Shown: positions 11,878 to 64,000, counted from the stretch's first letter. The stretch: 64,000 nt of DNA from Bacteroidales bacterium (GCA_965230435.1 CBDDLB010000006.1:1928270-1992269), one strand, 5' to 3'. Notes: generated from the sequence alone by a model not told the origin. Made by a program: numbers and translations.

Positions 11878-11909
11878 TGTTTCAGGTTTTAGTAGTGTTA
11901 GAATACTGA

Positions 11910-25750: not shown

Positions 25751-25882
25751 TGTTTCTCAAAAGAAATTATCAATTAACTTACGCCTGAAAACCAACACGT
25801 AGTCAACTTAAGGTGAGCAATTATTAATTAGAGTGTAAAACATATTGCTCATATTTTCAACTCTATAAACCTACTTTTTGAT

Positions 25883-26098: not shown

Positions 26099-26389
26099 AG
26101 AAAAAGTAAAAAAGTGCCAAAGGCATGTGTAATAATCTTTGGTTCTTCAATACCACCTACATAATTATTCTCTCACACATAGATGTCATTAAAAGTCAAC
26201 CAACTCATCTACAACACAATAATCACTATCCAATACTTAAATAAATACATCACATCAATTTTATCTATTTTTTCTATAACAAACTGTTCACCAACTACGT
26301 ATCCTGTAGAATATCGAAGAGAGATAAAAATGCTAGTTTACAACTGATTTGTAAAATTGACTATTACACTTTCTAACAAATGAAAGGAT

Positions 26390-29300: not shown

Positions 29301-30571
29301 TAAGCGATTTTGGTCAAAAACTAACTTCCATGCTCAGCCTAGACGACATTATGGAAATGGTATACAGCTATGTTTCGTCTATTGTTAAAACCGACGCTTT
29401 TGGAATTGGGCTTTACCGCGACCAGCAAAAACGTATCGACTACCATGCCTTCTATGAAGCTGAAAAAGCACTGGATCCATTTTCTAAGGAATATTGCCCT
29501 GAGCGTAATTTTTCGTCTTGGGCCATTGCTAATAAGAAAGAAGTCTTTGAGAACTCTATCAGCAGAAACTTCAAATTATACTTCAAGGAAGAACCTTCGC
29601 TCTGCACAAACATAAACGCAAAATCCGTACTTATTTTTCTGCTATATTCAGATGAAAAGGTAATTGGAGTCCTATCTGTTTACAACAATAAAGAGGAAGC
29701 CTTTGCTGCAAAAGATTTCTCATTCCTGAAAAACCTTTCAACCTACATTGCAATTGCAGTAGCCAATGCCCGCTTGTACGGCGAGGTAAACAGAAAAAAC
29801 GATCATATACGAAGCAGTATTTCCTATGCCCAAAACATCCAAAAGACTATACTACCTCTAAAAAAACATATGGATGATTTCGTAAAAACCTTCACCCTCT
29901 TCTTACCCAAAGATGTTGTTTCTGGAGATTTCTACTGGCACTCGGACATATCAACCCCAGACAAAAAAGAAGCTCTGTTTGCCGTTATAGATTGTACAGG
30001 ACATGGTGTTCCTGGAGCGTTCATGTCGTTAATCGGGAATCGCATCCTAAACCGCATTGTCAACGAAAGAAAAGTTTACGACCCGGCGCATATACTCACT
30101 GCCTTACACAGCTTTATTGTTGAAGCACTGAAACAGGAAAGTTCCGACAACAACGACGGAATGGATGTTGCCCTTTGTAAAATCACATACCAAAAGCATA
30201 ATGCAACAGTCCAATATGCAGGCGCAAAACGCAACCTTTATATTCTTGAACCTTCTGGAACAACAAAGACAATCAATGGTACCAGAAAATCAATTGGTGG
30301 AGCAAAGGCAAAAAGAAGCAAGGCCGAATTTACCTCTCATACAATCAACGTAGATAAAGAGACAACTCTATACTTAACTTCCGATGGGTATGCAGACCAA
30401 AACGGCGTCAATCAAAAACGGTTTGGATCCAATAAACTTGTCGAACTCCTTTCTGAAATACACAAGGACGACATGCAAAAACAAATGCGAATTCTTAAAC
30501 AAAGGCTGTTCGAACACATGGAGGGCTTTGACCAACGTGACGACATAACCATTATGGGCATTAAAATCTAA
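26390..30571 (+). CDS. beta-propeller/YYY sensor - TM - coiled coil - GAF - PP2C phosphatase, paralog 2
   Basis: 1393 aa, collinear with paralog 1 and carrying the same motif set. It has the longest coiled-coil segment of the three. Confidence 0.85.
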   Translation: MRGLIVLIFLIWSTFFVFFDTYSQNDNYVTSQYTITDGLPHNRVSSLAFDKQGFLWLATANGLFRFDSYKFEEYAKTKTNATAINSPYLESLLVDSKGNIWAGYYVGGLIKYNTTDQSIVSYSPSDNDSSSICNTRIKTICEDKLGNIWVGSGGSGIAKLDEKTGKFKHYLRKKTKDNDWTGTSVNQLICTKDSTIWAACIGGLYKYNKSKDSFERIKSQKKSNHKQNEFACLVEDTLRNCLWLGTWSSSLGKLDLQTDELTFRKNKATSTASILIDSQGTIWLGSWGKGLYRYYADSNKFERHTFEGDSTKIKSIKVIRKITEHSSGEIWLSTHSTGILTITKSKAFKKIKHPKSKRTTYTQDLRYIDNKLFMATNIGLHQRTDSGTFKAISKRRVITQKILKTDSNQIWITNNQYIERLQQTENGYTLKYLKLFKKGKYNDTRKVSGIIFKDSLAYISTIHYPMTIFKLGKGGNYWFKKRLNPKIGAVGHLPTARVNNMFKDSKGKIWIGSFGGLYQVKGEDEMLPVKQFISKGKRLSGDLITEIEEDSKGRLLVSTTKGLNILTPTDKDNYNLTIYDTSNGLPENYIRSCAVDVNGTVWVSTNTNIVRIDLEKQDVFAFGRKDGINVPIFTRSSTVSPDGKIIFGARGCYVEFDPKKVETIRKKPKLELSSLSILNNPIKAGEEFNDRVILKKAISYTKKLKITYKEKEFSIELSLLEYQKEKKNFYEYKLVGFDNDWVQLGRQRTVSFTNLPAGKYQLQARAITSEGVYVNLPSPLTIIVTPPWWKTLWFRITFILLIIVGAIGFFRYRIHAIKEKNRELEHQVLLRTQEIRQQSEEIVAQRDHLAMQKEKLEKANTLLQEHQEEITTQRDRLSEQKNELEHTNNKLNVQNSEIKQQSEEIATQRDELSRQKEKLESTNYLLKERQEEILAQNEEIRQQTEEISAQRDYVQKQNKEIEEGLMNMELLSDFGQKLTSMLSLDDIMEMVYSYVSSIVKTDAFGIGLYRDQQKRIDYHAFYEAEKALDPFSKEYCPERNFSSWAIANKKEVFENSISRNFKLYFKEEPSLCTNINAKSVLIFLLYSDEKVIGVLSVYNNKEEAFAAKDFSFLKNLSTYIAIAVANARLYGEVNRKNDHIRSSISYAQNIQKTILPLKKHMDDFVKTFTLFLPKDVVSGDFYWHSDISTPDKKEALFAVIDCTGHGVPGAFMSLIGNRILNRIVNERKVYDPAHILTALHSFIVEALKQESSDNNDGMDVALCKITYQKHNATVQYAGAKRNLYILEPSGTTKTINGTRKSIGGAKAKRSKAEFTSHTINVDKETTLYLTSDGYADQNGVNQKRFGSNKLVELLSEIHKDDMQKQMRILKQRLFEHMEGFDQRDDITIMGIKI

Positions 30572-31091
30572 CAAATTTCTAAAACCCTATTGGATAATAT
30601 TTCAAGAAGTGTATTTCAATTCAACCAACATAAACTATCTACAAAAAATGACGGTAGAGTTCTAAAACACTTTACTTAGTACTTACTCTCTTTATAAGCC
30701 AAGAGATACATAAAAGTTGTACTAAAAAATAAATCGTTCAATCAGTTATCTATAACCATATAAGAAAACATCATACAACAAAGATGCTCAAAAAACAACC
30801 TGTAAATCGACGCTTAGAAATGACTCCACCTATCAAAATAACATATTTCCCCTTTAAGCCAACTCACAGCTCGGGTTCTTCTTTAAATGAGGTGTGCGCC
30901 TGCGATTCAAACCTTGTTTTTTTACGCCCTTTCCGAAAAAAAATACCATTATCATATGACAACAAACAGAATCCACCTCCATTCCAAAGCAATTAAATTC
31001 AACCTATAAAAACATCAAACAAGACAAAAAATATTATATTGCACATTATTTGCAACTCTACGCTGAAACCCCTGTTGGATAAACGATCGAT

Positions 31092-34000
31092 ATGAAGAAA
31101 CTGAACGCTTTATATATTTGTTGTTTTGTTCTTATTGCCCTCAATACCTTTGCCCAGAACAATAATTATGTCACCTCGCGATACACGATCGCAGACGGTC
31201 TGCCGCATAACCGTGTCAGCTCATTAAAATTCGACCAACAAGGATTCTTATGGCTTGCTACTTCAAACGGACTTTTTAGGTTCGACAGCTATAAATTTAA
31301 AGAATATGCCCAGGTAAAAGCAGACACCTCATTTATAAACAGTCCATATCTAGAATCGTTGCTGGTTGATTCCAAGGGAAACATTTGGTCCGGATATTAC
31401 ATTGGTGGAATCATAAAATACAACCCCAAAGACCAATCTGTAGTATCCTATCTTCCAGACGATAAAGACTCCACCGCCATTTGCGGCAATAGAATTAGGA
31501 GCATCTGCGAAGATAAAGAAGGAAATATATGGGTAGGCTCTGGCGCAAACGGAATAGCAAAGCTTGATATAAAAACACAAACGTTCAAACATTACTTACG
31601 CAGAAAAACCAAATCTGGAGTATGGGTTGGACAAGACATAGGTGGTATTATCTGCACTCGGGACTCCAACATCTGGGCTGCAGGCATTGGAGGGCTATAT
31701 AAATACAACAAAAAGAAAGACCTATTCAAGAGAATTGGAGTTACAAAAAAAAGAAAAGGTGAAACTTTTGCCACCATAGCCGAAGACACTGTACGCAACT
31801 GCATATGGCTCGGTGGCTGGTTTAAGATGCTTGCCAGAATTGACCTAAAAACAGGCAAAGGAAAATGGAAAAGAACCCCGTTAGGACCAATAGTTGAAAT
31901 CCATCCCGACTCAAAAGGAGTATTATGGCTTGGAACTTGGGGCAATGGCATTCTCAGGTATGATGTAGATGCCAAGAAGTTCGAATCGCACACCTTTGAA
32001 GGAGACTCCACCGCATTTGCCAATGTAAAAACAATACGCAGTATTACAGAAGATACTTCTGGGGAAATATGGGTCAGCACACACTACTCTGGCATTCTTA
32101 GCATTTCGCAAAGCAAAGCATTCAAAAAACACGACCTACCTAGCTATGCAAAATCTCAGTTATACACACGCGATCTGGCCTATCTCGACAATAAACTATT
32201 CATAGCAACTCAAAAAGGATTACTGATAAAGCCAGACTCAGGCCAGTTCGAACACATAAAACGTAGAAGTTCAAAATACGACAATCTGGAACGAATATTA
32301 CGAGTAAACGACGATAAGCTATGGGTCACCAATCACGAATTCATAGATTCCCTTTATCTTAAAGACGGGAAGTATAAACTTAAAAAAATATGGTTGTTCA
32401 AAAAAGGAGCCTTTACAGACACACGTAAAGTAAGTGGAATGTTGCGTGACGGAGATTTAATCTACATCTCAACTATTCACTACCCAATAACAATATACAA
32501 ATACAACAAAAAAGGGAACCATAAATTCATAAAAAGGTTCAATCCTCAGAATAAAATAGAAGGTAGCGTATCCACCTCCAAAACAAACGATCTATTTAAA
32601 GATTCGAAAGGAAAAATCTGGATCGGCACTGTTGGCGGTCTTTATCAAATAAAGAATAAAGACAAAATGATTCCAGCACATCGGCTCATAAAAAATGGCA
32701 AGAAACTAGGCAGCGATCTTATTCTGGAAATAAAAGAAGATAACAAAGGCCGAATCTTAGTCTGCACAGGAAAAGGCTTAAACGTATTAACACCTTCTGA
32801 CAACGGGATGTATTCCCTTTCTGTTTACGATGACTCAAAGGGATTGCCCGAAAACAACGTAAGGTCGTGCGCTGTCGATCATGATGGAATCGTTTGGATC
32901 AGCACCAATACCAACATCGTCCGGATTAATCTTGATAGTGAAGAGGTTTCAGCTTTCGGCAGAAAAGACGGTATAAATGTGGAAGAGTTCACGAGATCTT
33001 CTATCGTTAAACCAGATGGGAAAATCATATTCGGAGGCAAAGGCTGTTACCTTGAATTCGATCCTTCGGAGGTGAAAATGTTAAAAAAAACGCCTAGGCT
33101 TGAACTGTCCGGTTTCAGCATTCTGAATAATCCTATAAAAGCTGGTGAAGAATTCAACAACAGGGTAATTCTAGAAAAAGCAATCAATTTTACAAAAAAG
33201 CTGAAAATAACTTATAAAGAAAAAGAATTCACAATTGAGCTGAGCTTGCTGGAATATCAGAAAAACAAAAACAATTTCTACGAATACAAACTTGTTGGTT
33301 TCGATCACGATTGGGTCCAACTGGGCAGGCAACGCTCCATATCTTTCACCAACCTTCCCGCAGGAAAATATGAGCTACAAGCCAGAGCCATCACCAGCGA
33401 AGGATATAAAATAAATCTGCCAACACCGTTAAAAATAACCGTCACCCCTCCTTGGTGGAAAACTGCCTGGTTCCGTATTTCTCTGATTATCTTCATCATT
33501 ACGACCTCGGTTTCTTTCTACCAGTATAGAATGAATGCCATTAAAGCACAAAACAGAAAACTGGAAGAACAAGTACAACAACGTACACAGGAGATCAAAC
33601 AGCAATCTGAAGAAATTAAAACCCAACGCGACAACCTTGTTGAGCAAAAATCCAAACTTGAAGATGCGAACCAACTTCTGAAAGACCGGCAGGAAGAAAT
33701 TCTGATGCGAAATGAAGAAATCCAACAACAGGCAGAGGAAATAACAGCCCAACGGGATTATGTTAAGAAGCAAAACCTTGAGATCGAAGAAGGTTTGAAG
33801 AACATGGAGCTATTAAGTGAGTTTGGTCAAAAACTCACAGCCACCCTTAGCCTCACTGTAATTTTACGCATGGTACATAATTATGTGGCCTCTATCGTAA
33901 AAACCGACGCTTTCGGGGTTGGCCTCTATCGGGACAAAAAGAAGCGGATAGATTATCATGCTTTCTACGAAGACGGGAAAGCCATAGATTTATTTTCAAA

Positions 34001-35087
34001 TGCACACGATCCACAAAAGAGTTTCTCGTCGTGGGCTATTGAAAACAAAAAAGAAATTTTCGAAAACAGTGTATTGAAGAACTTTCGGTTATACTTCAAC
34101 GAAGTACCGTCGCTTAATACTAGTTTCGAAGCAAAATCAGTTTTAGTATTTCCTTTATTTTCAGAAGAAAAAGTAATCGGGGTTTTCTCTGTTTATAGCC
34201 GCGAAGAAGATTCTTATTTGCAAAAAGACTTTGCATTCGTAAAAAGTTTGTCTGCATACATTTCTATTGCAGTGGCCAACGCCCGTTTGTATGGCGAAAT
34301 GAACCGCAAAAATGAGAACATTCAAAGTAGTATTGCTTATGCCAGAAATATTCAGAAAGCAATACTTCCACTAAAACAACATATGGACACATTTGTCCAA
34401 ACCTTTACCCTTTACATGCCGAAAGCTGTAGTATCCGGAGATTTCTACTGGCACACAGACATATCTGAGGGAGATAAAAAAGAGGCCTTCTTTGCTGTTA
34501 TAGACTGTACAGGACATGGTGTTCCCGGGGCTTTCATGTCCCTGATCGGAAACAGGATTCTGAACCGCATTGTTAACGAAAGAGGTGTCCACGAACCAGC
34601 GTCAATATTAACAGAACTAGATAAATTCATTATTGATGCTCTCAAACAACGAACAACCGAAAACAACGACGGTATGGACGTTGCCCTCTGCAAAGTCACA
34701 CAATCTGAGGAAGGGGCAACAGTGGTATATGCTGGAGCTAAACGAAACCTGATCCTTATTGATTCAAAAGGCGAAATAAACATAGCTAAAGGAACACGAA
34801 AATCTATCGGTGGAGCTAAATCCAGAAGAAACAATAAACATTTCACTTCCGAGACCATCGAACTAACCAAGGGAACCACTCTCTACTTAACTTCAGATGG
34901 CTATGCTGATCAGAACGGAGTTAACGAAAGCAAATTCGGTTCAGCCATGCTCTTGGACTATCTATCTAAAATTTATACAGAAGACATGGAAAAACAAGCC
35001 CACTTGCTGGAAAAAACCCTTCTTGAACACATGGGCGGCTTCGAACAACGCGACGACATTACCATCATGGGAGTCAAGATACTATAG
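31092..35087 (+). CDS. beta-propeller/YYY sensor - TM - coiled coil - GAF - PP2C phosphatase, paralog 3
   Basis: 1331 aa with a signal peptide ending TFAQ and the same domain order. It has the shortest coiled coil of the three. Confidence 0.85.
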   Translation: MKKLNALYICCFVLIALNTFAQNNNYVTSRYTIADGLPHNRVSSLKFDQQGFLWLATSNGLFRFDSYKFKEYAQVKADTSFINSPYLESLLVDSKGNIWSGYYIGGIIKYNPKDQSVVSYLPDDKDSTAICGNRIRSICEDKEGNIWVGSGANGIAKLDIKTQTFKHYLRRKTKSGVWVGQDIGGIICTRDSNIWAAGIGGLYKYNKKKDLFKRIGVTKKRKGETFATIAEDTVRNCIWLGGWFKMLARIDLKTGKGKWKRTPLGPIVEIHPDSKGVLWLGTWGNGILRYDVDAKKFESHTFEGDSTAFANVKTIRSITEDTSGEIWVSTHYSGILSISQSKAFKKHDLPSYAKSQLYTRDLAYLDNKLFIATQKGLLIKPDSGQFEHIKRRSSKYDNLERILRVNDDKLWVTNHEFIDSLYLKDGKYKLKKIWLFKKGAFTDTRKVSGMLRDGDLIYISTIHYPITIYKYNKKGNHKFIKRFNPQNKIEGSVSTSKTNDLFKDSKGKIWIGTVGGLYQIKNKDKMIPAHRLIKNGKKLGSDLILEIKEDNKGRILVCTGKGLNVLTPSDNGMYSLSVYDDSKGLPENNVRSCAVDHDGIVWISTNTNIVRINLDSEEVSAFGRKDGINVEEFTRSSIVKPDGKIIFGGKGCYLEFDPSEVKMLKKTPRLELSGFSILNNPIKAGEEFNNRVILEKAINFTKKLKITYKEKEFTIELSLLEYQKNKNNFYEYKLVGFDHDWVQLGRQRSISFTNLPAGKYELQARAITSEGYKINLPTPLKITVTPPWWKTAWFRISLIIFIITTSVSFYQYRMNAIKAQNRKLEEQVQQRTQEIKQQSEEIKTQRDNLVEQKSKLEDANQLLKDRQEEILMRNEEIQQQAEEITAQRDYVKKQNLEIEEGLKNMELLSEFGQKLTATLSLTVILRMVHNYVASIVKTDAFGVGLYRDKKKRIDYHAFYEDGKAIDLFSNAHDPQKSFSSWAIENKKEIFENSVLKNFRLYFNEVPSLNTSFEAKSVLVFPLFSEEKVIGVFSVYSREEDSYLQKDFAFVKSLSAYISIAVANARLYGEMNRKNENIQSSIAYARNIQKAILPLKQHMDTFVQTFTLYMPKAVVSGDFYWHTDISEGDKKEAFFAVIDCTGHGVPGAFMSLIGNRILNRIVNERGVHEPASILTELDKFIIDALKQRTTENNDGMDVALCKVTQSEEGATVVYAGAKRNLILIDSKGEINIAKGTRKSIGGAKSRRNNKHFTSETIELTKGTTLYLTSDGYADQNGVNESKFGSAMLLDYLSKIYTEDMEKQAHLLEKTLLEHMGGFEQRDDITIMGVKIL

Positions 35088-49016: not shown

Positions 49017-49170
49017 GCTTTAAAATAGTCGCGATTGTAGCGGAAAGCTCACAGCAACGCAGGCTAGAGAAATACGTTATGGCGGCTTATGGAACAAGGG
49101 TGGAATAGACCGCCGCAGCGATATTGAACAGCCTGTGAGGCTAGGACTTGTAGCAGAAAGCGGGCTGAGA
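49017..49170. repeat. family-B GC-rich structured repeat, copy 1
   Basis: GCGATTGTAGCGGAAAGCTCACAGC...GGAATAGACCGCCGCAGCGATATTGAACAGCCTGTGAGGCTAGGACTTGTAGCAGAAAGCGGGC aligns to the reverse complement of 59553..59712. Confidence 0.75.
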
Positions 49171-52931: not shown

Positions 52932-55900
52932 CTATCGGGCAGCAAATTCCTCATCAGCAAACAAAACCAAATAATCACCACCAAAATTAAAATGAGGAGC
53001 ATGGTTAGTGCCGTTGGTGATAAACATACGGAATTTCTCATCATTGGCAGCAGGTAACAAGCTCATTGCTTCATCGCGGGCTTCGCTGATTTCGTTGATG
53101 CCGTTTACACCCAATTGCTTCAACAGATCAACCGACTGTTCGAAGCTTGTGCGTTCGACTTTTGCAGAGCATTCAGCCTCGAAAGTTTGGATCATCCGTT
53201 GAGTGTTGGTGTAGCTTCCGCCCTGTTCCATCGGTAAGCTGGCAGGTAAGATAATGTCTGCCATGTGGGCGGTTTCGCTCATGAAATTATCTTGTACAAC
53301 AACAAAATCCGCTTTAGTAAACCAAGATCGGGCTTCTTCCGCATCTTCGGCTGTTCCTACAGGATCTTCGCCGAATACGAACAGGTTGCGAAGTTTTTCA
53401 CCTTCAAGAAGAGCCTCAACATCATTAATATTCGTTGGTAGCGCATCCACGTTCCAGCTTTCTTGCAGTTTTCCGGTCAACTGATCAATCGCTTGCTGGC
53501 CAACACCATTTGCTTCACAGACGCCCATATCCCAAAGACCTTGACTGTTGTTCTTCTCTTTGAGTGATAACAGGCCGCTTGCAGTTTTTCCCAATTTTCC
53601 TGTAATCAGAGCCAAGTTGAACAGTTCACGTGCAGTCTGAGACGATACATGATTTTCAGAAAAAACAAGCACGGCGTTTGACTCTTCGTTAAACAAATTT
53701 GCAAAATGCACCACTGTACCACGGCAACATGGAATTGCCTTATGCACCAGCTCTTCGTAATCCTCTTTCAGCAATTCAGTTTTGTATTCCTCAAAACCTT
53801 CTACACGGCCATCAATGAAGAACTGATTTTGCAGACCTTTGCGCAGCAAATAATGATTTACGGCGCGCACAAAGTAGTAATAACTTTCGATTTCGGTATA
53901 GTGATCCACTTTGTGCTTCATCGAAGATTCCTCTTTCGTCGTTAACAGCTCAATAGGAACACCGTATTGCATACGGGCAGAGTTGATGAAGAAGCTTGCA
54001 ACGCCATTTTCGTTATTAGGCTCAGAGCCGAACACAAAAATGCGGCTTGCATATTTTAATTCAGAAAAAGGAACATTTGCCGTACTGGTAAAACCATAAT
54101 CTCCACGCCCCAAATAATGGAAACTGCTGACATTGTTGGTTTTTGCTCCTGCACGAGCCAGCTTTTGGATCATGTATTGTTCCTCGTTAGTAAGACGTGC
54201 TCCTGCAAAGAATGCATTTTCGTCTGGTGAGACGGCCTTGATTTTGTTTTTTATTGTAGTATAAGCCTCTTCGAATGAAATCTCAACGAACCCGTCACCT
54301 TGCTTTTTCAAAGGTTTTGTAATACGCTTGCTATCGTTTAAATATGTGTAGCCAAAGCGGGGCAATTTACAGATATTACCATCTGCATTTACCATACCCT
54401 CAGCTCCATCTACCTTCATCACGTAACCGTTGTGGTGCTGAACTTCAATCTTACAACCAATAGAACAGTAGTTGCAGATGGTTTCGTAGCTTTCCAGCTC
54501 AACAGGCCCAGGTTTGAAGGTAACATTCTCAGAGATAGCACCCGTCGGACAAGTTGAGATACACATGCCGCACGATTCGCACTTAGTTTCCGTTAGGGAT
54601 TTTCCCATTGCAGGAGCAACATAGGTATCGAAACCGCGATTAATCAAGCCTAAAGCATCAGCCCCCACAACATCCTTACAGATGCGGATACAACGAGAAC
54701 ACAAAATACACTTGTTGCTATCGATTTCTACAAATGGGTGCGAAAAATCAACCTTATACTCTTTGAATTCTCCAGCGTAGCGGTTTTGCTCAACTCCGTA
54801 TTCAGAGGCATATTTCTTTAGATCGCAAGTAAAAAATTCTACACAGCCGCATTCAAGACAACGTTGAGCTTCTTCGCGTACCATCGGTTCGTCGTAGCCC
54901 AATTCCACCTCGTTGAAGTTGAAACGCTCAACAGGAGCCAATACTGGCATTTCTTTACGTTTCTGTGTATCGTAATTTGTTGCGTAATCTTTAGATTCCT
55001 GTGTTTTGAAATTCGATTTCTTCGAAAGGAACTCTTGAGGTTCAGGTTTCAATTCTTCCCCAGAAAGAAACTGTTGAACACTGCGTGCCGCAATCTTGGC
55101 CTGAGCGATAGATTCGATCAAAGTTGCAGGGCCTGTTACTCCATCACCGGCGGCGAAAAGCGAAGGGATACCAGTCTGTAAAGTTGCTTCATCAGCATTG
55201 ATATTGCCCCAACGGTTTACTTTCAGTTCGCCATTTTTTGCATGAGTGTTGATGCCTTCAAGGAACTCAACCTTCGTTTTCTGACCAATTGCCGCCAGCA
55301 CATAATCCAGTTTCAGCTCAAACTCAGAACCTTCTATTGGCACAGGACGGCGACGACCAGAAGCATCTGGTTCTCCAAGTTCCATACGCAACAACGTCAT
55401 CGACTTTAGGCATCCATTTTCATCCTTGTTGATTCTTGCAGGATTCGTAAGGAAAAGATATTCAATGCCCTCTTCTTTCGATTCGTGAATTTCGATTGGG
55501 TTGGCAGGCATTTCTTTTTCGGTACGACGATAAATCACGTAAGTTTTTTCAGCACCGCAGCGCATCGAAGTACGACAACAGTCCATAGCTGTGTTTCCTC
55601 CACCTACAACAGCAACTGTTTTACCAGAGAAATCGTATTTCTGACCTGTCATTTCCATATTTCTCAGAAAATCTATTCCCGACAGAACACCCTCAGCATC
55701 ATCGCCGTCAACACCAACTTTTGTTCCTGCCTGCGATCCGATTGTCAGCACAACAGCATCGTAATTGTCCTGAAGGTTTTTGTAGCTTAGGTTGTCGCCA
55801 AGTTTTTGATTGAAGAAGATGTTCGCTCCAATCTCGCGGATACAGTTTATTTCCCGATCCAACAGATCGTTTGGCAAACGGTATTCTGGAATACCATAGC

Positions 55901-56603
55901 GCAACATTCCGCCTGCATGTGAACTGGCTTCGTAAACATCGCACTGATGACCTTTTTGTTGTAGGAAATAAGCCGTGGAAATTCCGCCCGGGCCAGCTCC
56001 GATAATCGCAACTTTCTTCCCTGTAGATGACGCAACTTCTGGTATATAATGTTTTTCTGATTGTAAATCGTAATCCGCAGCAAAACGCTTCATGTAGTCG
56101 ATGCCCACAGGTGCGCCTTCGTCCATTAAATTACGACGGCAGGCAACTTCGCAAGGACGCACGCACACACGTCCGCAGATAGCTGGAAGTGGGTTCACTT
56201 CTTTGATCAGTGCAGTGGCTTCTTCGTACATCCCCTTGTCGATAAGCGAGATGTAGCCCTGAACATCAACTCCTGCGGGACAGGTGTCTTTACACGGCGC
56301 CTGACAGTCGGCATAGTGATTACTGAGCAGTAAATCCAAAGCTGTCTTTCGCGCCTTGCGTACCTTTTCGTTATCTGTGTTGATCACCATGCCTTCCACT
56401 ACACGCGTAGAACATGATGTCTGCAAACTACGCGCCCCCTCTACCTCTACAACGCATACAAAACACGAAGAATAGGGTTCAAGGCGCGGATCGTGACATA
56501 GCGTCGGAATTTCTACTCCATGACGCTCGGCTGCTTTTAGTATGGTTTCCCCGTCGTAGGCTTTTACTATTTTGCCGTTTAGGGTTATATTTAGTTCTTT
56601 CAT
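52932..56603 (-). CDS. fusion oxidoreductase: [2Fe-2S] ferredoxin + GltD-type NAD(P)H/FAD module + [4Fe-4S] clusters + truncated molybdopterin-oxidoreductase-like (NuoG-like) domain
   Basis: Domains N- to C-terminus: 2Fe-2S (TLCHDPRLEPYSSCFVCVVEV); GltD-like Fe-S plus dinucleotide folds (KVAIIGAGPGGISTAYFL, GGMLRYGIPEYRLP, KTVAVVGGGNTAMDC); 2x[4Fe-4S] (CILCSRCIRIC, CESCGMCISTCP); MopB Fe4S4 (CNYCSIGC). The MopB body ends without an obvious C-terminal MGD-binding barrel. Confidence 0.75.
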   Translation of the reverse strand: MKELNITLNGKIVKAYDGETILKAAERHGVEIPTLCHDPRLEPYSSCFVCVVEVEGARSLQTSCSTRVVEGMVINTDNEKVRKARKTALDLLLSNHYADCQAPCKDTCPAGVDVQGYISLIDKGMYEEATALIKEVNPLPAICGRVCVRPCEVACRRNLMDEGAPVGIDYMKRFAADYDLQSEKHYIPEVASSTGKKVAIIGAGPGGISTAYFLQQKGHQCDVYEASSHAGGMLRYGIPEYRLPNDLLDREINCIREIGANIFFNQKLGDNLSYKNLQDNYDAVVLTIGSQAGTKVGVDGDDAEGVLSGIDFLRNMEMTGQKYDFSGKTVAVVGGGNTAMDCCRTSMRCGAEKTYVIYRRTEKEMPANPIEIHESKEEGIEYLFLTNPARINKDENGCLKSMTLLRMELGEPDASGRRRPVPIEGSEFELKLDYVLAAIGQKTKVEFLEGINTHAKNGELKVNRWGNINADEATLQTGIPSLFAAGDGVTGPATLIESIAQAKIAARSVQQFLSGEELKPEPQEFLSKKSNFKTQESKDYATNYDTQKRKEMPVLAPVERFNFNEVELGYDEPMVREEAQRCLECGCVEFFTCDLKKYASEYGVEQNRYAGEFKEYKVDFSHPFVEIDSNKCILCSRCIRICKDVVGADALGLINRGFDTYVAPAMGKSLTETKCESCGMCISTCPTGAISENVTFKPGPVELESYETICNYCSIGCKIEVQHHNGYVMKVDGAEGMVNADGNICKLPRFGYTYLNDSKRITKPLKKQGDGFVEISFEEAYTTIKNKIKAVSPDENAFFAGARLTNEEQYMIQKLARAGAKTNNVSSFHYLGRGDYGFTSTANVPFSELKYASRIFVFGSEPNNENGVASFFINSARMQYGVPIELLTTKEESSMKHKVDHYTEIESYYYFVRAVNHYLLRKGLQNQFFIDGRVEGFEEYKTELLKEDYEELVHKAIPCCRGTVVHFANLFNEESNAVLVFSENHVSSQTARELFNLALITGKLGKTASGLLSLKEKNNSQGLWDMGVCEANGVGQQAIDQLTGKLQESWNVDALPTNINDVEALLEGEKLRNLFVFGEDPVGTAEDAEEARSWFTKADFVVVQDNFMSETAHMADIILPASLPMEQGGSYTNTQRMIQTFEAECSAKVERTSFEQSVDLLKQLGVNGINEISEARDEAMSLLPAANDEKFRMFITNGTNHAPHFNFGGDYLVLFADEEFAAR

Positions 56604-56741
56604 GACTTTTTGATGGGTTTCTCTTCGGAATAATTACTAGTTATGAACAATGCACATCCTTGAACATTCAGATGTTTTTTGCTGATGCTTCGGGTAAGGT
56701 GTTTGAAATTGTTGGGTGATTTGTTTCTGTTAGTATTATTC

Positions 56742-56875
56742 GCCCCCTATATCCCCCTAAAGGGGGGACTCAAATACTATATGTTTCTGAAAATTCATTA
56801 CCTCAAACTATTTTCAGAAAGGCTTGTCAAGAAAAAATCACTAACCAAGTCCCCCTTCAGGGGGATATAGGGGGC
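56742..56875. mobile_element. MITE-like 134-bp element with 28-29-nt terminal inverted repeats
   Basis: Left arm GCCCCCTATATCCCCCTAAAGGGGGGACT; right arm AGTCCCCCTTCAGGGGGATATAGGGGGC. Each arm contains its own CCCCC/GGGGG hairpin. The inner part holds a second inverted pair, TTTCTGAAAAT/ATTTTCAGAAA. Confidence 0.7.
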
Positions 56876-56900
56876 AAACCAACAACCAATCAACCAAAAA

Positions 56901-58679
56901 TCAACTAAGCCCAATAGCATCAAACTTACACTTAGAATAACAAGCCCCACACTTAATACACAACTCCTGATCAATCAGGTGCACAGCCTTACGCTCACCG
57001 CTGATAGCATCCGTAGGACAATTCTTAGCACAAACCGTACAGCCCGTGCAGGCATCAGCAATAATGGTGTAAGTGAGCAGTTGAGTACAACTTTTCGCAG
57101 GACACTTCTTGTCGCGGATATGAGCCTCGTATTCATTGCGGAAATACTTGATTGTCGTCAGCACAGGATTCGGAGCAGTCTGACCAAGTCCACAGAGCGA
57201 ACTATCCTTGATCTGGTGAGAAAGCTCCTCCAATGTTTCAATATCACTCTCAACACCTTCACCTTTAGTAATGCGCGTAAGAATTTCCAACATACGCTTC
57301 GTGCCGATACGGCAGAACGTACACTTGCCACACGATTCCTTTTGCGTAAAATCCAAGAAGAAACGCGCCATATCCACCATGCACGTCGTTTCGTCCATCA
57401 CCACCATGCCACCAGAGCCCATAATCGCACCCGTCGCATTCACTTTATCATAATCCACAGGAGTATCGGCCAGATATTCAGGCACACAGCCACCAGAAGG
57501 TCCACCGAGCTGAACAGCCTTAAACTCCTTGCCGCCCTGAATACCACCGCCCAGTTTGAAGATAATATCGCGGATGCTCATTCCCATTGGCACTTCCACC
57601 AGACCGCCATGGTTCACCTTTCCAGTCAAAGCAAACACCTTTGTACCTTTGGATTTCTCAGTGCCATATTTGCTGTACGAATCAGCACCATTGAGCAGAA
57701 TGTAAGGAATGTTCGAGTACGTTTCAACATTGTTGATGTTCGTAGGCTGGCTCCAGAGCCCCTTTTCGGCAGGAAACGGAGGACGTTTTCGTGGCATACC
57801 ACGCTCACCCTCAATAGAAGCTATAAGAGCAGTTTCCTCGCCACAGACAAATGCCCCAGCACCCTCTTTCACATACAGGTCGAAGTTGAAACCTACAATT
57901 CCACAAGCATTCTCTCCAAGATACCCCTTCGCACGAGCCTGATCAAGCGCAAGGTTCAGACGCTTAATCGCCAGCGGATACTCAGCACGGCAATAAATAA
58001 CACCGCCCGTAGCCTGCATAGCATAAGCCCCAATGATCATCCCTTCGATAACAGCATGCGGGTCGCCCTCCAAAATCGAACGATCCATAAACGCCCCAGG
58101 ATCACCCTCGTCGGCATTACAGAGCACATACTTTTCGTCGGACTTATTATTGTAAGCAAACTTCCACTTCATTCCTGTTGGGAAACCGCCGCCGCCACGT
58201 CCTCGGATGCCCGAATCCAGAACAGTCTGTATCACATCCGTTGGCGGAGTTTTATCCGTTGCTATCTTTTTAATGGCCACATAGCCATCATTAGCCTCAT
58301 AATTCTCAATCGATTCGGGGTCGATGTGCCCACAGTGGCGCAATGCAATTTTCACCTGCCCCTCCCAGTAAACATCATCATCCGTCGTGAACATGTCCGA
58401 TTTCACCACATACCCCTTCACCACTTCCCCCAGATGCACATGCTTCTCAACCAATTCCGTCGCACGCATCTCATCCACCTCGCCATACAGGTAGCTGCCA
58501 TCCTCGTCAATCACCTCAACAAGAGGCTCGCGGTAACACATACCCACGCAAGAGGTCTTCTCAAGTTCAAACTCGTAATTCTCCTTGTCACGCAGCTCTT
58601 CCAGCCTAGCGTACACCTTATTGGCACCCGCAGCTATGCCGCAACTGCCAAGCCCTACAATTACTTTTGGCTTTGCCAT
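56901..58679 (-). CDS. NuoF/HydB-like NADH-binding FMN Fe-S subunit with extra N-terminal [2Fe-2S] and C-terminal 2x[4Fe-4S] domains
   Basis: Start at ATG 58679 (MAKPKVIVGLGSCGIAAG). Motifs: FMN GRGGGGFPTGMKW; N3-cluster CGKCTFCRIG; C-terminal CTGCTVCAKNCP and CIKCGACYSKC. Confidence 0.88.
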   Translation of the reverse strand: MAKPKVIVGLGSCGIAAGANKVYARLEELRDKENYEFELEKTSCVGMCYREPLVEVIDEDGSYLYGEVDEMRATELVEKHVHLGEVVKGYVVKSDMFTTDDDVYWEGQVKIALRHCGHIDPESIENYEANDGYVAIKKIATDKTPPTDVIQTVLDSGIRGRGGGGFPTGMKWKFAYNNKSDEKYVLCNADEGDPGAFMDRSILEGDPHAVIEGMIIGAYAMQATGGVIYCRAEYPLAIKRLNLALDQARAKGYLGENACGIVGFNFDLYVKEGAGAFVCGEETALIASIEGERGMPRKRPPFPAEKGLWSQPTNINNVETYSNIPYILLNGADSYSKYGTEKSKGTKVFALTGKVNHGGLVEVPMGMSIRDIIFKLGGGIQGGKEFKAVQLGGPSGGCVPEYLADTPVDYDKVNATGAIMGSGGMVVMDETTCMVDMARFFLDFTQKESCGKCTFCRIGTKRMLEILTRITKGEGVESDIETLEELSHQIKDSSLCGLGQTAPNPVLTTIKYFRNEYEAHIRDKKCPAKSCTQLLTYTIIADACTGCTVCAKNCPTDAISGERKAVHLIDQELCIKCGACYSKCKFDAIGLS

Positions 58680-58777
58680 GGTTTCGATTTTATTCGAATA
58701 ACTGAATAATAGACTCATAGAATAATTGAATGTCAGTTCGGACAATCATTCTATTATTCATTTATTCCCTTATTCAA

Positions 58778-59299
58778 TTATTGTTTTCTCCTGATGTCCT
58801 TTACCACCTTAACAGCCGCCTTGCCATCCAGCTTACCATAAGTTTCCTCTCCGATCATCATCACGGGAGCAAGAGAGCAGCACCCAAGGCAGGCAACCGA
58901 TTCCAGCGTGAACAGCCCGTCGGGCGTAGTTTCGCCATCCTCTATCTCCAAGGCATCCGCAAGCGCTTCCGTAACCTTCGATGCATTCTGCACGTGGCAG
59001 GCCGTTCCATGACACACCTTTACGATGTGCTTGCCCACAGGCTTCAACCTGAACTGAGCATAAAAAGTAGCCACACCATAAAGGTCGCTTTCCTTAAGCC
59101 CCGTTTCCGATGCAATTTTCTCGAAAGCAACAGTCGGGATATAATTGTAAATCTCCTGAACCCCCTGCAACAAAGGGATCGTACTACCTTTTTTGTTTCT
59201 GAATTTCTCTATCAGCGGATCAATCAGTTTAAGGTCTATCTCCCCATTGGCAGGCAAAGATTGGGGAGATTCGCTGGTCAACACTCGTTTTACTCGCAT
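58778..59299 (-). CDS. NuoE/HydC-like thioredoxin-fold [2Fe-2S] subunit
   Basis: Cys pattern CHGTACHV ... CLGCCSLAPV in 173 aa. Confidence 0.85.
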   Translation of the reverse strand: MRVKRVLTSESPQSLPANGEIDLKLIDPLIEKFRNKKGSTIPLLQGVQEIYNYIPTVAFEKIASETGLKESDLYGVATFYAQFRLKPVGKHIVKVCHGTACHVQNASKVTEALADALEIEDGETTPDGLFTLESVACLGCCSLAPVMMIGEETYGKLDGKAAVKVVKDIRRKQ

Positions 59300-59552
59300 G
59301 TTGTGCTATAGTTTAGTGTCCGTATATCCAAAAGTCAATCTAACGAATAAAGTAAATGAGAATTTCATTTAGAAACATTTTATATTAAGGCACTTAAGGG
59401 ACATTTCATGACACATGGGGAGTTTTGAGTTTCGGAGTTTTGAGTTTTGTTCACTTTCGCCAGCTCACTGGTCATTAACCCTGATAACTCGCCAGCCAAT
59501 TAATAATTACGAACTAATAATTAATAATTTGAGGAGCAAAGCTCCTGTGCTT

Positions 59553-59712
59553 CCCCCAGCAGCGTCGCGCTTTCCGCTACAAGTCCTCGCCACGGGAGCT
59601 GTTCCACATCGGCCCGGCAGTCTATTCCGCTCCCGCTACATAGCTGCCAGACCGTGTGTCACTAGCCCCCGTGGCTGTGGGCTTTCCGCTGCAATCGCGG
59701 CTAATTTTAGAG
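59553..59712. repeat. family-B GC-rich structured repeat, copy 2 (inverted)
   Basis: The reverse complement reads GCGATTGCAGCGGAAAGCCCACAGCCACGGGGGC...GGAATAGACTGCCGGGCCGATGTGGAACAGCTCCCGTGGCGAGGACTTGTAGCGGAAAGCGCG. Confidence 0.75.
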
Positions 59713-59770
59713 CGTTGTCCTTTGCTCCAACATTGCTTTTTTTGGTAGGGTTGATAATGATCTGATAGTT

Positions 59771-59803: not shown

Positions 59804-60611
59804 GCTATGGGTTGCTATCGTTCATGAAAACATTTACTGGTTGATATAACTTAATGGCACTATATAAGTGTATTTTATCTACTTTAGGAGAACTAAAGCA
59901 AGAGACAGCACATACTGCAATCAACTGTTATAGTTTATTTTGACATTATTGCATAACCTAAAAAATATTATGAATACAGAAATAAAAGCTTTACAAGTAA
60001 AATATGGAGACTGTTTTATTATTAAAACATTCGATAATAAGGGCGAAGAATTTAACATTTTGATGGATGGTGGTCCCGGTAATTCATTTTTAGCGGTATT
60101 GAAAAGAGAATTACAAGACAAACCTAAAATTGACTTGTTGATAATTACTCATATAGATGATGACCATATTAAGGGGTTAAACAATTTTCTAAAGAGTTCT
60201 CTGGCTGGAAAGGTTAAAATTGAAAATGTTCTAATTAATGCAAAAAACCTAAAACGGTTTGCTGATGGAAAAGAACTATCTTATGCATCAGTAATTGATT
60301 TTGAAAAGAAAATTCTTAAAAAATATCCTGACATAAATATTTACGGTGATTGTGTATGTGACGAACCTGATAGAAATTCAGTTTTATTTCGAAATGAGAG
60401 CATTAAAATAAATATTCTTTCCCCAAATAGAGAGTGTCTGACATATTTGTACACTGAAGAGGATAAGCGTTATAAGGTTAATAAATGGCATGATGTCGAA
60501 TTAGAACATTTAAAGGAAACAGGACAGTTGAGTGAACCTGTTGAGCAGGATGAAGAAACTATTCCTGACATATATGAATTAGCTCAAGCTGATGATATTG
60601 ATAAAAATAAG

Positions 60612-61571
60612 TAGAGGTGTTTACTTAGAAACAATTATATTTGCATGAAATAAAAACAATTATGCAAGAATTTCACGGAGAAGATCTCATAAAGTTCATA
60701 GAACGTTTTCCAGACGACAATAGCTGCTATCTTTATCTGTCTGAAATCAAGTGGACTAACGGTTATAAATGTAAAAAGTGCGGTCATACACACTACAGTA
60801 GCGGAAAAAAACATGAACGTACCTGTACCCTTTGTAAACACAGGGAAAGTACAACGGCAGGCACTCTTTTCCACAAGTTGAAATTCGGCATCCGCAAAGC
60901 TTTCCTGATCTGTTTTGAGCTCAGTGCCACGACCAAAGGGATGTCCTCCTCCCAGCTTTCGGAACGTTACGGCATCTCAAGGAAAACAGCCTGGGCATTC
61001 AGCCATAAAGTCAGGCTGGCAATGGAGAGTCAAGGAGATCAGCCGGTTGAAGGGACAGTCCATGTGGACGAGTTTGTTTTCGGTGGCAAAGAGAACGGCA
61101 AACAGGGGCGCAGTTATGATACAAAAAAGAAAAAAGCGGTCTGTGCCGTGGAACTTGATGACAAACAGCAGATTAAAAGGGTGTATTCACAGAAGATCGA
61201 AGATTTTTCTTCCAAATCTCTGCGGGGGATTTTTGAAAAACATATCAGCAGGCAGGCCCAGGTGGTCACTGATGAGTGGAGGGGCTACAGACCGGTCGCT
61301 AAAGATTATAATATTGAGCAGATACCCAGTAGGAAAGGGAAGAATTTCATGCAGCTGCACAATGTGATACATCAGATCAAAAGCTGGATCAGGACGAATT
61401 TTTCCTGGATCGCACCAAAACACACCGATAAATATTTAGCTGAATATTCTTTTAGGATCAACAGATCTATTTTCAAGGGCTCTATATTTCATAAGCTCAT
61501 TGAACGTATGACAAATAGACCTCCTGTGAAATTTATTGACATAGTGGATTGTACTTAAATAAACACCTCTA
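60612..61571 (+). mobile_element. IS1595-family insertion sequence (960 bp) with 8-bp target duplication
   Basis: Inverted ends TAGAGGTGTTTACTTA / TAAATAAACACCTCTA and direct repeats AAAATAAG at 60604..60611 and 61572..61579. The element holds a single transposase ORF. Confidence 0.85.
60662..61558 (+). CDS. IS1595-family (ISXO2-like) DDE transposase with N-terminal zinc ribbon
   Basis: Zn-ribbon (CKKCGHTHY...CTLCKH) followed by an ISXO2-like region (HVDEFVFGG...VTDEWRGY). Confidence 0.85.
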   Translation: MQEFHGEDLIKFIERFPDDNSCYLYLSEIKWTNGYKCKKCGHTHYSSGKKHERTCTLCKHRESTTAGTLFHKLKFGIRKAFLICFELSATTKGMSSSQLSERYGISRKTAWAFSHKVRLAMESQGDQPVEGTVHVDEFVFGGKENGKQGRSYDTKKKKAVCAVELDDKQQIKRVYSQKIEDFSSKSLRGIFEKHISRQAQVVTDEWRGYRPVAKDYNIEQIPSRKGKNFMQLHNVIHQIKSWIRTNFSWIAPKHTDKYLAEYSFRINRSIFKGSIFHKLIERMTNRPPVKFIDIVDCT

Positions 61572-62001
61572 AAAATAAGTATTTGTCAAATGACAGGTAC
61601 AATGCTTCATCGTTAGCATTTATACTTGAAACCCCAGACTTCAAAGGTTTATTTCTTGGCGATGCTTGGCCTTCAGTGATAAAAACTTCCCTTGATAGTA
61701 TTTTTAATGACTTTCCCGTTACTTTTGATTTAATCAAAGTATCACATCATGGAAGTCATTATAACACAACAAAGTATTTAATGGAATTAATAAACAGTGA
61801 GCATTATGTTGTTTCAACCGATAGTTCTCGCTTTGGACATCCAGATATTGAGGCGATAGCAAAGATTATTTGCGCCCCTCAAAGACTTGATAAAAAGATA
61901 AAACTTTGGTTTAATTACCAATTGGAACACATTAGTAAGGTAACGAATAGTCAAGAGGATATATATAAGTTTAAATGCGAATTTGACAAACAAATCATCG
62001 A

Positions 62002-64000
62002 ATGGAAAGAGACCTGTTAAAATATATCTGTGTTAAAGTATCAATTGTGATTGACGGAAATACAAAATTGTTTGGTAGCGGAGCGATGTTTAGGCATAAC
62101 GGAAAAACTTATGTTATTACTGCAGAGCATTGTATTCATGGAGTAAATACAGAGCGATACGAAAACACAACTACTGAAAATATACAAATTCAACACAGGC
62201 TAAATGACCAAGGGGAATTTACCGAAATAGAACCATTCGAAATCGTATTCTTTGACAAAACTTCGGACACAGCATTGTTGGAAGTAAACTACGAAGGTCA
62301 AATTCCTTTTGATATTCATTTTGCAACAGAACTATATTCCAACAATCTCTTTCTAAGAGGTTACCCAAGATGGCTTAAAGGAGATGAAGCAGCAACACAT
62401 CAAGGTATTTTAAAAGAAGAACAAGTATCCAGTTTTATTCTTTTTTCAAGTGATTTTGTTGACACCACAAGATTGAAGGATACGGAAGAATTTACAAAAA
62501 ACTTATCTGGCAGCGGTGTTTTTATCAAAGAAAAAGGAAAAATAACATTAGTCGGCATTGTTTCTGAGCTTAGGGAAGAAGAAGGGATATTAGGGCAGGT
62601 AAAATGCTCAAAACTAAGTAGTATTTTTCAAGAAATAGAGGTTTTTTTTAATAATAATCCTTTGCTTTTGGCATTAAAAAGGCAGAACGATAGACAATTA
62701 GAAAAGCAGATTAATTCAACAAAATACATTAGGAACACATTTATTGAGACAAGAGAACTAAAAGATAATCTCAGATATTTCTGTGCACCTTTCGATTTTA
62801 TTGATAAAACCATTTCGGAGTACCAAAGAATTGACCTAAAACATTTTAATCGCAAACAGGAATTAGCAGGTCGGGAACCAATAGAAAACAATATCAATAG
62901 CATTTTAAAAGATGTTTCTACACTTGACTTTCGAACTTTTGGACAATACATAAATGAGCTTACGGAATACACAAAGTCTCAAATAAAGGAGTTTGAAAAA
63001 ACACCAACTAATGATGCTTCATATGCCAAGCGAAAGTTTGAAAACAAACTAAATGAATTCAAGTATTACAGCAAACGAGTGTTATTAATCCAAGACAATG
63101 CGGGACAAGGAAAAACCAATATTGTTTGTGATTTGGTTGATAAAGTAATTAGTAGAAGAAGTATTCCTTGTGTTTTCAGCACAGGTCAAGGTTACGAGTT
63201 AAATGCAGAAGAAATAAAGCAGTCATTATCAAGACAAATCTATCCTAATGATAACGTAGATTTTAATGATATACTCAAGGAAATTGCACCTTATTGTGAA
63301 CTGAACCACTCACCATTTATAATAATAATTGATGGTCTAAACGAAAATTCAAATCCGCTTTTCAATAGAAAATTAGAGGAGTTTATTTCTGCGGTATTGG
63401 AGTTTCATAATATTAAGGTTATCCTAACATGTAGAACTGAGTATTTTGCGCACACATTTAAAAATCTTCTTTCAGCATCTTTCAAGGAAGAAATAATAAC
63501 GATTACTGACCTAAAAGGACAATTCAATGAAAATCAGAATGAAATTCTTTTTAACGCCTATTTAGACCATTTTAAAGTTGAAATTGCTGAAGTTTCAGAT
63601 GAAGTCTTCAAGCAACTGACAAATAATTTCTTAATGCTAAGAATATTTAGTGAGGCTCATGAAGGTGAACAGTTGCAGAATGTAAAAGATATTTATAAAC
63701 AAAAACTATTTCAACATTATTTCAAAAATAAAATCGAAAACATTACTGAAAATAATAATGAAATTGAGAGAGAAATTTTTGTTCTATTTGAGAGATTGAT
63801 TTCTTACATGATTGTCAAACAGGAATTCACAGATATTCCAATAGATAAAGTCTTAACACCAGAAATAAATAAGGGTGTTATAGATAAGTTTGTTTATGAA
63901 AATGTTTTAATTCGAAAAGATATTAGTGAGAACCCAGGTTCATTTTTTGGAAAGAGTGAGGTTTTGAATTTCACTTTCGATGAGTTTAGGGACTATCTAA
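62002..64000 (+). CDS. trypsin-like serine protease fused to NACHT/STAND P-loop NTPase (5' partial view; ORF continues past window end)
   Basis: I translated this ORF by hand because it is not in the supplied track. It is open from ATG 62002 for 666 codons to the window edge. Protease triad contexts are VITAEHC, SDTALLEV and LSGSGVF. Walker A is QDNAGQGKTN and the NACHT-style Walker B is PFIIIIDGLNEN. The start overlaps the MBL gene's stop by 19 nt. Confidence 0.8.
   Translation, partial: MERDLLKYICVKVSIVIDGNTKLFGSGAMFRHNGKTYVITAEHCIHGVNTERYENTTTENIQIQHRLNDQGEFTEIEPFEIVFFDKTSDTALLEVNYEGQIPFDIHFATELYSNNLFLRGYPRWLKGDEAATHQGILKEEQVSSFILFSSDFVDTTRLKDTEEFTKNLSGSGVFIKEKGKITLVGIVSELREEEGILGQVKCSKLSSIFQEIEVFFNNNPLLLALKRQNDRQLEKQINSTKYIRNTFIETRELKDNLRYFCAPFDFIDKTISEYQRIDLKHFNRKQELAGREPIENNINSILKDVSTLDFRTFGQYINELTEYTKSQIKEFEKTPTNDASYAKRKFENKLNEFKYYSKRVLLIQDNAGQGKTNIVCDLVDKVISRRSIPCVFSTGQGYELNAEEIKQSLSRQIYPNDNVDFNDILKEIAPYCELNHSPFIIIIDGLNENSNPLFNRKLEEFISAVLEFHNIKVILTCRTEYFAHTFKNLLSASFKEEIITITDLKGQFNENQNEILFNAYLDHFKVEIAEVSDEVFKQLTNNFLMLRIFSEAHEGEQLQNVKDIYKQKLFQHYFKNKIENITENNNEIEREIFVLFERLISYMIVKQEFTDIPIDKVLTPEINKGVIDKFVYENVLIRKDISENPGSFFGKSEVLNFTFDEFRDYL

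Follow-up and report, generated by a model that had tools for sequence, protein, structure and literature searches.

What kind of system is, or was, encoded by two overlapping genes of which the first is split by an insertion sequence (IS) and the second runs off the end of the available DNA? The question is raised by a locus at the right end of a 64,000-nt stretch of DNA from a Bacteroidales bacterium (GCA_965230435.1 CBDDLB010000006.1:1928270-1992269; this whole stretch is called the window below). Gene 1 encodes a metallo-β-lactamase (MBL)-fold protein, and gene 2 a protease of the trypsin type joined to a NACHT-type NTPase of the STAND class. In a preliminary description of the sequence, the locus was put forward as a candidate antiphage system disrupted by the IS, and its sequence statements all hold at the positions given here. 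We consider it likely that the locus is a horizontally acquired, NLR-like anti-phage system, probably of five genes, which carries a trypsin-MBL gated pro-nuclease pair as its killing module and which the IS has inactivated.

The gated pro-nuclease pair

The trypsin-MBL module was characterized in 2025 in Hachiman and in AVAST type 1 (Tuck et al., Science 2025, PMC12799240; Huang et al., bioRxiv 10.1101/2025.09.03.673762). In these systems the MBL protein is a pro-DNase whose active site is blocked by two inserted loops, and the partner protease cuts both loops; the bond cut either follows a conserved Ile, in a motif of the IS(G)N type, or lies inside KSS motifs (Tuck et al., 2025; Huang et al., 2025). 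Loop cutting frees an indiscriminate DNase, and the infection is aborted. Activation of the nuclease by protease cleavage has been demonstrated only for PflHamMAB, EpiAvs1 and the Kp Hachiman-MBL system (Tuck et al., 2025; Huang et al., 2025). Among the partners of the pair are HamA, the Avs1 STAND protein, LmuA, DRT, short Argonaute and DSR2 (Tuck et al., 2025; Huang et al., 2025), and unrelated sensors have taken up the pair on repeated occasions (Tuck et al., 2025). In EpiAvs, the AVAST system of Erwinia piriflorinigrans, Avs1a is the nuclease and Avs1b the protease-STAND protein (Tuck et al., 2025), so that the make-up of type 1 AVAST had been given correctly in the preliminary description. 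The main texts of both studies mention neither Avs2 nor radical SAM.

Gene 1 lies on the plus strand in two parts, codons 1-214 at 59970-60611 and codons 215-360 with the stop codon (62018-62020) at 61580-62020. The parts are in frame without the IS and one copy of its target-site duplication, and deletion of 60612-61579 restores a single frame of 360 codons. The THIDDDH and SHHGS motifs on which the MBL assignment had been based are confirmed as T60-H61-I-D63-D-D65-H66 (60147-60167), with the HxDxDH metal site H61-H66 at 60150-60167 in the 5' part, and as S269-H270-H271-G-S273. The product matches Pfam Lactamase_B (7e-9) and, locally, NCBIfam ComEC_Rec2, while the MBL models of PADLOC rank the LmuA type first (1e-72), followed by the reverse-transcriptase-associated RTasMBL (2e-54) and Avs1a (3e-36). 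The repaired protein keeps every residue found invariant across 39 homologues: D33, T60, H61, D65, H66, G69, N90 and P152, and, encoded by the 3' part, N222, S225, D242, H270, H271, S273 and P302. The AlphaFold model of the repaired protein (predicted local distance difference test, pLDDT, 81; predicted template modelling score, pTM, 0.85) finds its best solved match in the MBL domain of ComEC (9ic4, E 7e-12). As judged from sequence and model, gene 1 is a ComEC-like MBL nuclease with intact metal-binding residues.

Two segments of this protein, residues ~90-120 and ~154-220, vary in length among homologues and have low model confidence. In the homologue alignment, L103-S104 (60276-60281, plus strand) in the first variable insertion and I201-Y202 (60570-60575, plus strand) in the second fall on positions at which homologues carry [ILMV]-[SG]. 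The likely protease cut sites would thus lie after L103 and after I201; both the cleavage and the occlusion of the active site are predictions. By homology with the characterized systems, the MBL protein would be made as an inactive proenzyme with the two inserted loops masking its active site.

Gene 2 starts at the ATG at 62002, so that its first 19 nt overlap the end of gene 1, the coupling that had been described before. Its frame stays open for 666 codons up to the end of the window (62002-64000, plus strand), again as described. A database protein (P0001) is 100% identical to the product and has 915 residues, which places 249 residues beyond the window and the end of the gene at ~64749. 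An open frame of this length in DNA of 31% G+C, together with motifs that are invariant across the family, means that chance is not at issue.

The protease domain covers residues ~1-215 (plus strand), and H43 (62128-62130), D89 (62266-62268) and S169 (62506-62508), the first Ser of LSGSGVF, align with the catalytic triads of LmuA- and HamA-fused proteases, in agreement with the earlier assignment of a trypsin-like N-terminus. The PADLOC protease model of the LmuA type matches residues 1-336 at 5e-24. A conserved helical bundle (residues ~198-357) leads to the NTPase, in which Walker A (NAGQGKTN, 63097-63120, with K371 at 63112-63114) and Walker B (FIIIIDGLNE, 63316-63345) lie on the plus strand. 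The P-loop and NACHT-type Walker B named earlier proved invariant across 27 homologues (GQGK371T, G368-T372; IIIID444GLNE448), as did R478. The Pfam NTPase scores lie around their gathering thresholds, with NPHP3_N at 25.2 against 24.8, nSTAND3 at 23.8 against 27.2 and NACHT at 17.3 against 26.7. In the profile searches proposed for the locus, PADLOC models recover both the protease and the STAND homology, and Pfam Trypsin_2, nSTAND3 and NACHT stay below gathering.

PADLOC Avs2 matches gene 2 at 4e-26, with residues 267-799 on model positions 252-786 of 1504, and the profile of the family matches the solved Avs2 structure 9o4e at 1.6e-24; a phmmer search of the PDB with P0001 alone gave no match, Avs2 being reached by the family profile only. 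For the modelled residues 220-915 (pLDDT ~90), the top fold matches are Avs4, NLRP9 and NLRP3. Beyond the part aligned to Avs2 there are 116 more residues, and residues 680-915 form a compact helical region in the model. The STAND module of gene 2 is, on this sequence and model evidence, Avs2-related and devoid of the long C-terminal (TPR-like) sensor. A possibly novel sensor C-terminus had been placed beyond the window; the missing 249 residues are helical throughout and conserved in the family, and their number is too small for a sensor of the Avs type.

The locus shares with the characterized pairs a ComEC-like MBL core with two variable insertions, catalytic residues that are intact in both MBL and protease, and an MBL gene placed directly before the protease gene. 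It differs in its sensor, a short Avs2-related NACHT protein of a family with a radical-SAM cassette, in its putative P1/P1' residues (Leu-Ser and Ile-Tyr against the published IS(G)N and KSS) and in its IS-broken nuclease gene. The locus had also been described as a two-gene variant in which protease and NTPase are fused. The fusion is real; it is the normal state in the Avs1, Hachiman and Lamassu versions and does not make a variant, and relatives carry further genes. By homology with EpiAvs1 and PflHamMAB, an infection signal would cause the STAND module to oligomerize, the clustered protease domains would cut both MBL loops, likely after L103 and I201, and the released DNase would degrade DNA and abort the infection. 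Proteins encoded downstream would probably act in sensing or licensing.

The sensor family and its downstream cassette

Clustered at 50% identity, P0001 stands by itself among 1.84 billion representatives. A search with it returned 792 matches at E <= 1e-3 and 212 at E <= 1e-30 (representatives at 50% identity), and the best of these, with 34-41% identity, align only from residue ~220 on. For the genomic survey, one genome per species was scanned, 165 relatives were confirmed and the locus DNA of 80 was taken. The N-terminal domains of 79 STAND relatives include SMEK nuclease (25), trypsin (5), TIR (3) and nucleoside deoxyribosyltransferase (3), besides PNP, DUF4062 and lipase-like domains, one each. 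Such variety on a common NTPase is, to judge from these domain assignments, the effector-swapping pattern of NLR-like defence proteins.

An MBL gene directly upstream of a STAND protein with a trypsin N-terminus occurs in only 6 of the 80 genome loci, all from Firmicutes, and metagenomic loci with the trypsin-bearing homologue P0046 provide a further example. The NTPase region (594 columns) was put into a neighbour-joining tree, which carries no support values; these trypsin-bearing members form one clade in it, and P0001 falls within a clade of Bacteroidota in which the other members are without the protease. The protease and MBL of the P0001 locus are best matched by the Lamassu-associated pair, and the protease of P0046 by HamA- and Avs1b-type models. 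This suggests that the pair entered the STAND family at least twice, once in Firmicutes and once in a Bacteroidota-like lineage. The separate tree positions and the differing best models fit the recurrent acquisition described by Tuck et al. (2025).

Downstream of the STAND gene, relatives carry a cassette of up to three genes on the same strand, joined by overlaps or tiny gaps; it was counted in the 71 genome loci with at least 1.9 kb of downstream sequence. A small protein, sA (~125-150 residues), was found by tblastn in 61 of them. All 71 have a second one, sB (~137 residues), whose N-terminal FVTNSSST motif is invariant, together with a radical-SAM/SPASM enzyme of ~345 residues. The enzyme matches Pfam Radical_SAM (3.5e-13) and SPASM (1e-6), and its radical-SAM CxxxCxxC and SPASM cysteines are kept in 72 of 72 sequences compared, the motif with eight more cysteines in at least 70 of the 72. 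The two small proteins are remote paralogues (hhalign, 98.3%) and gave no significant Pfam, PADLOC or PDB sequence match. The sB family comprises at least 1637 clusters, all annotated as hypothetical; among the best 120 of at least 1637 matches to the sB profile none comes from the source contig, which bears neither way on the presence of sB there. In RefSeq, an example on an Agrobacterium plasmid reads SMEK domain-containing protein, two hypothetical proteins and radical SAM protein.

The cassette occupies 12006-13873 in the Odoribacter laneus locus (L010) and 12378-14232 in a Firmicutes locus (L061). The latter shows the five-gene order directly, with MBL at 8417-9580, protease-STAND at 9593-12394, sA at 12378-12785, sB at 12785-13201 and radical SAM at 13198-14232, and the same order is seen in five other Firmicutes loci. 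Given the conservation in 71 of 71 relatives, we infer that the full system in the source genome probably has five genes, three of them beyond the window. The two-gene reading of the preliminary description is not supported by these neighbourhoods.

A similar arrangement that has been studied by experiment is the KpAvs2 operon, which consists of Avs2, Avap1 (a radical SAM protein) and Avap2 and protects Escherichia coli (Bechon et al., Nat Commun 2024, PMC11564622). In KpAvs2, the helical bundle between effector and NTPase is the part to which Avap2 binds, and the roles of Avap1 and Avap2 are an open question (Bechon et al., 2024). The locus in the window resembles it in having an Avs2-related STAND module with a helical bundle between effector and NTPase, and its relatives have a radical-SAM gene and a protein of ~140 residues directly downstream. 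It differs from KpAvs2 in the short form without a long C-terminal recognition domain, in the two small paralogous proteins of the short-form family where KpAvs2 has one, and in an effector made of a protease and a separate MBL where KpAvs2 carries a fused Mrr nuclease.

One long-form relative has exactly the three-gene layout of KpAvs2. P0355 (L090, 2805-8767) is a protein of 1512 residues in which a Cap4-like nuclease precedes an Avs2-like region. Next to it come a single 140-residue protein, matched by the sB profile at 99.9%, and a radical-SAM protein that is 46% identical to that of Odoribacter laneus (L010). This long-form locus links the short family to the KpAvs2 type of operon, and most likely the short family is, to go by these comparisons, a derivative of the Avap-associated Avs2 clade that is without the long sensor and has an extra small paralogue. 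There is one small sB-like gene in the P0355 locus and there are two small genes in the short forms. Set beside the published KpAvs2 operon, this single long-form example suggests that the extra paralogue sA may compensate for the lost C-terminal sensor.

A bolder proposal, which we offer as tentative and more doubtful than not, is that the short Avs2-related NACHT proteins, having lost the long C-terminal recognition domain, leave sensing or licensing to sA, sB and the radical-SAM enzyme as an obligate cassette, with sA, which the three-gene long-form operons do not have, as a trans-acting replacement of the sensor, and that the locus in the window would be a Bacteroidota case of a four-gene sensor independently re-armed with the trypsin-MBL pair. 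If this were true, NLR-like immune activation would include, as an integral step, radical-SAM chemistry whose target is a small protein or the sensor itself. Another arrangement of NTPase, radical-SAM and small proteins may be present at L089 (5695-9989; Methylobacterium indicum plasmid pVL1_2). A distant radical-SAM relative there, with 35% identity over its N-terminal half, follows a gene for a 599-residue ATP-binding protein and precedes three small hypothetical genes.

How the locus should be classed has to be decided among several known systems. Gene order and domain order are those of canonical AVAST type 1, in which the Avs1a MBL nuclease is joined by an Avs1b protease-STAND protein with a terminase-sensing C-terminal domain; the same activation logic, oligomerization followed by proteolysis of the nuclease, would be expected, and the MBL product matches the Avs1a models of PADLOC (3e-36) and NCBIfam (1.9e-52). 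The NCBIfam score of 178 bits, however, is below the equivalog level (cut-off 420 bits), and the PADLOC Avs1a match is weaker than that of the LmuA type. Gene 2 has no PADLOC Avs1b match even at E <= 1, while the distant trypsin-bearing relative P0046 matches Avs1b weakly. The Avs1b model spans 1924 positions against 915 residues here, half the length and without the long terminase-sensing domain. The STAND domain is from another clade, which matches Avs2 models and the solved Avs2 structure, and the radical-SAM cassette of the family is not mentioned for Avs1 in the main texts of Tuck et al. (2025) and Huang et al. (2025). With no Avs1b match, a half-length protein and an MBL that is homologous without being an Avs1a equivalog, canonical Avs1 was rejected as improbable. 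The best PADLOC models, labelled LmuA for both MBL (1e-72) and protease (5e-24), would instead point to a Lamassu (ABC-3C) system of the hydrolase-protease type whose remaining genes lie beyond the window, and the closest protease by tblastn is the LmuA-type one of L004, in a locus of MBL, protease-CTD4, MComp1 and ABC ATPase. The likeness to the Lamassu-associated pair ends with the pair: in gene 2 the LmuA models reach no further than residues 1-336, and besides these they span only the MBL; the fusion partner of the protease is a NACHT NTPase and not a Lamassu C-terminal domain, and the conserved neighbours of the NTPase family are sA, sB and radical SAM, not LmuB and LmuC. No ABC/SMC gene lies near the locus within the window. 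Lamassu was rejected as hardly credible on account of the NACHT fusion and of the missing ABC/SMC ATPase and middle component.

A reading outside defence takes the STAND protein, the two small proteins and the radical-SAM/SPASM enzyme as a regulatory module or as one for peptide maturation of the kind known from RiPPs (peptides made on the ribosome and modified after translation), with MBL and protease as processing enzymes. SPASM radical-SAM enzymes commonly modify peptides (PMC7159879), sA and sB matched no known family in the Pfam, PADLOC and PDB searches, and RefSeq gives the cassette no names beyond hypothetical protein and radical SAM protein. The swapped N-terminal domains (SMEK nuclease, TIR, PNP, lipase and protease) are, however, typical suicide effectors, the NTPase is homologous to Avs2, and the related operon of Avs2, radical SAM and small protein protects against phage (Bechon et al., 2024). 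Defence genes also flank relatives. The neighbourhood survey called for in the preliminary description found type I restriction-modification, AbiEi/AbiEii, AbiJ, Tmn and PADLOC candidate systems beside 13 relatives with very strong E-values, a qualitative result without a control set, and P0046 adjoins AIPR and McrBC-like genes. A role outside defence therefore appears quite improbable, and an anti-phage system built from the trypsin-MBL pair and an Avs2-related sensor is preferred.

The logic of a protease-activated pro-nuclease has been established since 2025, and the core of the finding is not new. The pair is now placed in a widespread STAND family (792 representatives at 50% identity) for which no link to it had been known, and the picture of recurrent acquisition is extended to Avs2-like, Avap-associated sensors. 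A short form without the C-terminal sensor would also be a cleaner system for probing roles of the Avap1/Avap2 type. The interest of the locus lies mainly in the accessory cassette and not in the part that is visible in the window.

The insertion and its probable effect on the system

The IS (60612-61571, plus strand, in the orientation of the operon) is 960 bp long and is recognized by its inverted repeats, target-site duplication and transposase. The terminal inverted repeats of 24 nt (60612-60635 and 61548-61571) are 83% complementary, and the 8-bp target-site duplication AAAATAAG is present as a left copy at 60604-60611 and a right copy at 61572-61579. The transposase gene (60662-61558, plus strand) encodes 298 residues with a Zn-ribbon and a DDE domain, which match Pfam Zn_ribbon_IS1595 (3e-6) and DDE_Tnp_IS1595 (6e-20), and scores 172 bits against NCBIfam IS1595, for which the cut-off is 75. 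With a Zn-ribbon and DDE transposase, inverted repeats and an 8-bp duplication, the element belongs to the IS1595 family.

The IS splits gene 1 after codon 214 (K214), 13 residues beyond the putative cleavage site at I201 and 8 before the invariant N222, and the interrupted frame now stops at a TAG (60612-60614) formed by the first three bases of the IS. A database search found three more transposase variants, 99.3-99.7% identical, on the same 2.98-Mb contig, so that the IS is multi-copy and has been recently active. Since all invariant MBL residues are kept, the gene has not decayed since the insertion. The perfect target-site duplication, the two intact halves and the near-identical transposase copies agree with the recent disruption that had been proposed before.

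A single-chain effector can no longer be produced, which most likely leaves the system inactive. The preliminary description had also considered that the protease-STAND protein might be left unchecked. In the characterized systems the MBL protein is the substrate of the protease and the toxic, killing effector, so that its splitting should disarm the system and not unleash the protease. The MBL protein is not an inhibitor of the protease in those systems, and a regulatory or antitoxin role for it was considered and rejected. An IS in the gene of a toxic effector is in keeping with the view that effectors of abortive infection carry a cost and are easily lost to inactivation.

The position of the IS also allows a different reading, in which the split mimics proteolytic activation. 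The IS falls in the linker just past the second insertion, 13 residues after I201 and 8 before N222, the N-terminal fragment 1-214 ends cleanly at the IS-borne TAG, and an open frame with a TTG start picks up again at 61583. The two fragments would form an ungated or partly gated nuclease, and the locus would be active or re-wired. A synthetic "pre-cut" HamM is an active, toxic nuclease (Tuck et al., 2025). A constitutively active DNase, however, would be toxic and counter-selected, and both loops need cutting in one characterized system (Huang et al., 2025), whereas the first loop would stay intact here. The right end of the IS carries no promoter-like signal above chance, the scan for sigma-70 promoters and terminators performed no better than chance, and translation of the C-terminal fragment is without support. 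This reading is very improbable beside that of an effector inactivated by the insertion.

Several points nevertheless weigh against a gated-nuclease system of five genes, now inactive, and should be kept in view. The locus and the short-form STAND members are known from sequence and homology alone. The cleavage sites were taken from an alignment only, and they depart from the published ones, since P1 of the first site is Leu and not Ile and P1' of the second is Tyr and not Ser or Gly. The Trypsin_2 match of gene 2 (6.9e-5) is below gathering, and the pLDDT of the protease domain is below 50, which is due to an alignment that mixes different N-terminal domains. The cassette in the source genome is a prediction from relatives, and the likeness of sB to Avap2 is one of operon layout: an hmmscan of 69 sB and 60 sA sequences gave no match to PF19902 (DUF6375). 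The transposase gene of the IS reads in the direction of the operon. Transcription of gene 2 may continue, and a C-terminal MBL fragment that starts at the TTG could still be made.

Surroundings of the locus

The locus has 30-33% G+C, against 44% in the adjacent hydrogenase genes and 39% in the window. Scans for tRNA, tmRNA and Rfam families in the upstream intergenic region and in the whole window found no match, and no integration site of the tRNA type was thus identified. A GC-rich intergenic element of ~150 nt occurs twice in the window, at 59545-59715 (plus strand), directly upstream of the defence locus, and at 49017-49162 (minus strand), with 77-82% identity between the copies. It can fold into a long hairpin (-69.6 kcal/mol, z = -4.1 against shuffled sequences) and has no Rfam match.

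The adjoining genes at 52932-59299 (minus strand) look, by sequence only, like an operon for a multimeric hydrogenase or NADH-dependent oxidoreductase. They encode a NuoE-like protein of 173 residues, a NuoF-like protein of 614 residues and a fusion protein of 1223 residues with ferredoxin, GltD-like and molybdopterin-oxidoreductase-like parts. The 1223- and 173-residue proteins are database singletons at 90% identity, which indicates that the source organism is without a close sequenced relative. Farther upstream, at 21617-35087 (plus strand), three large open reading frames of 1377, 1393 and 1331 residues stand in tandem.

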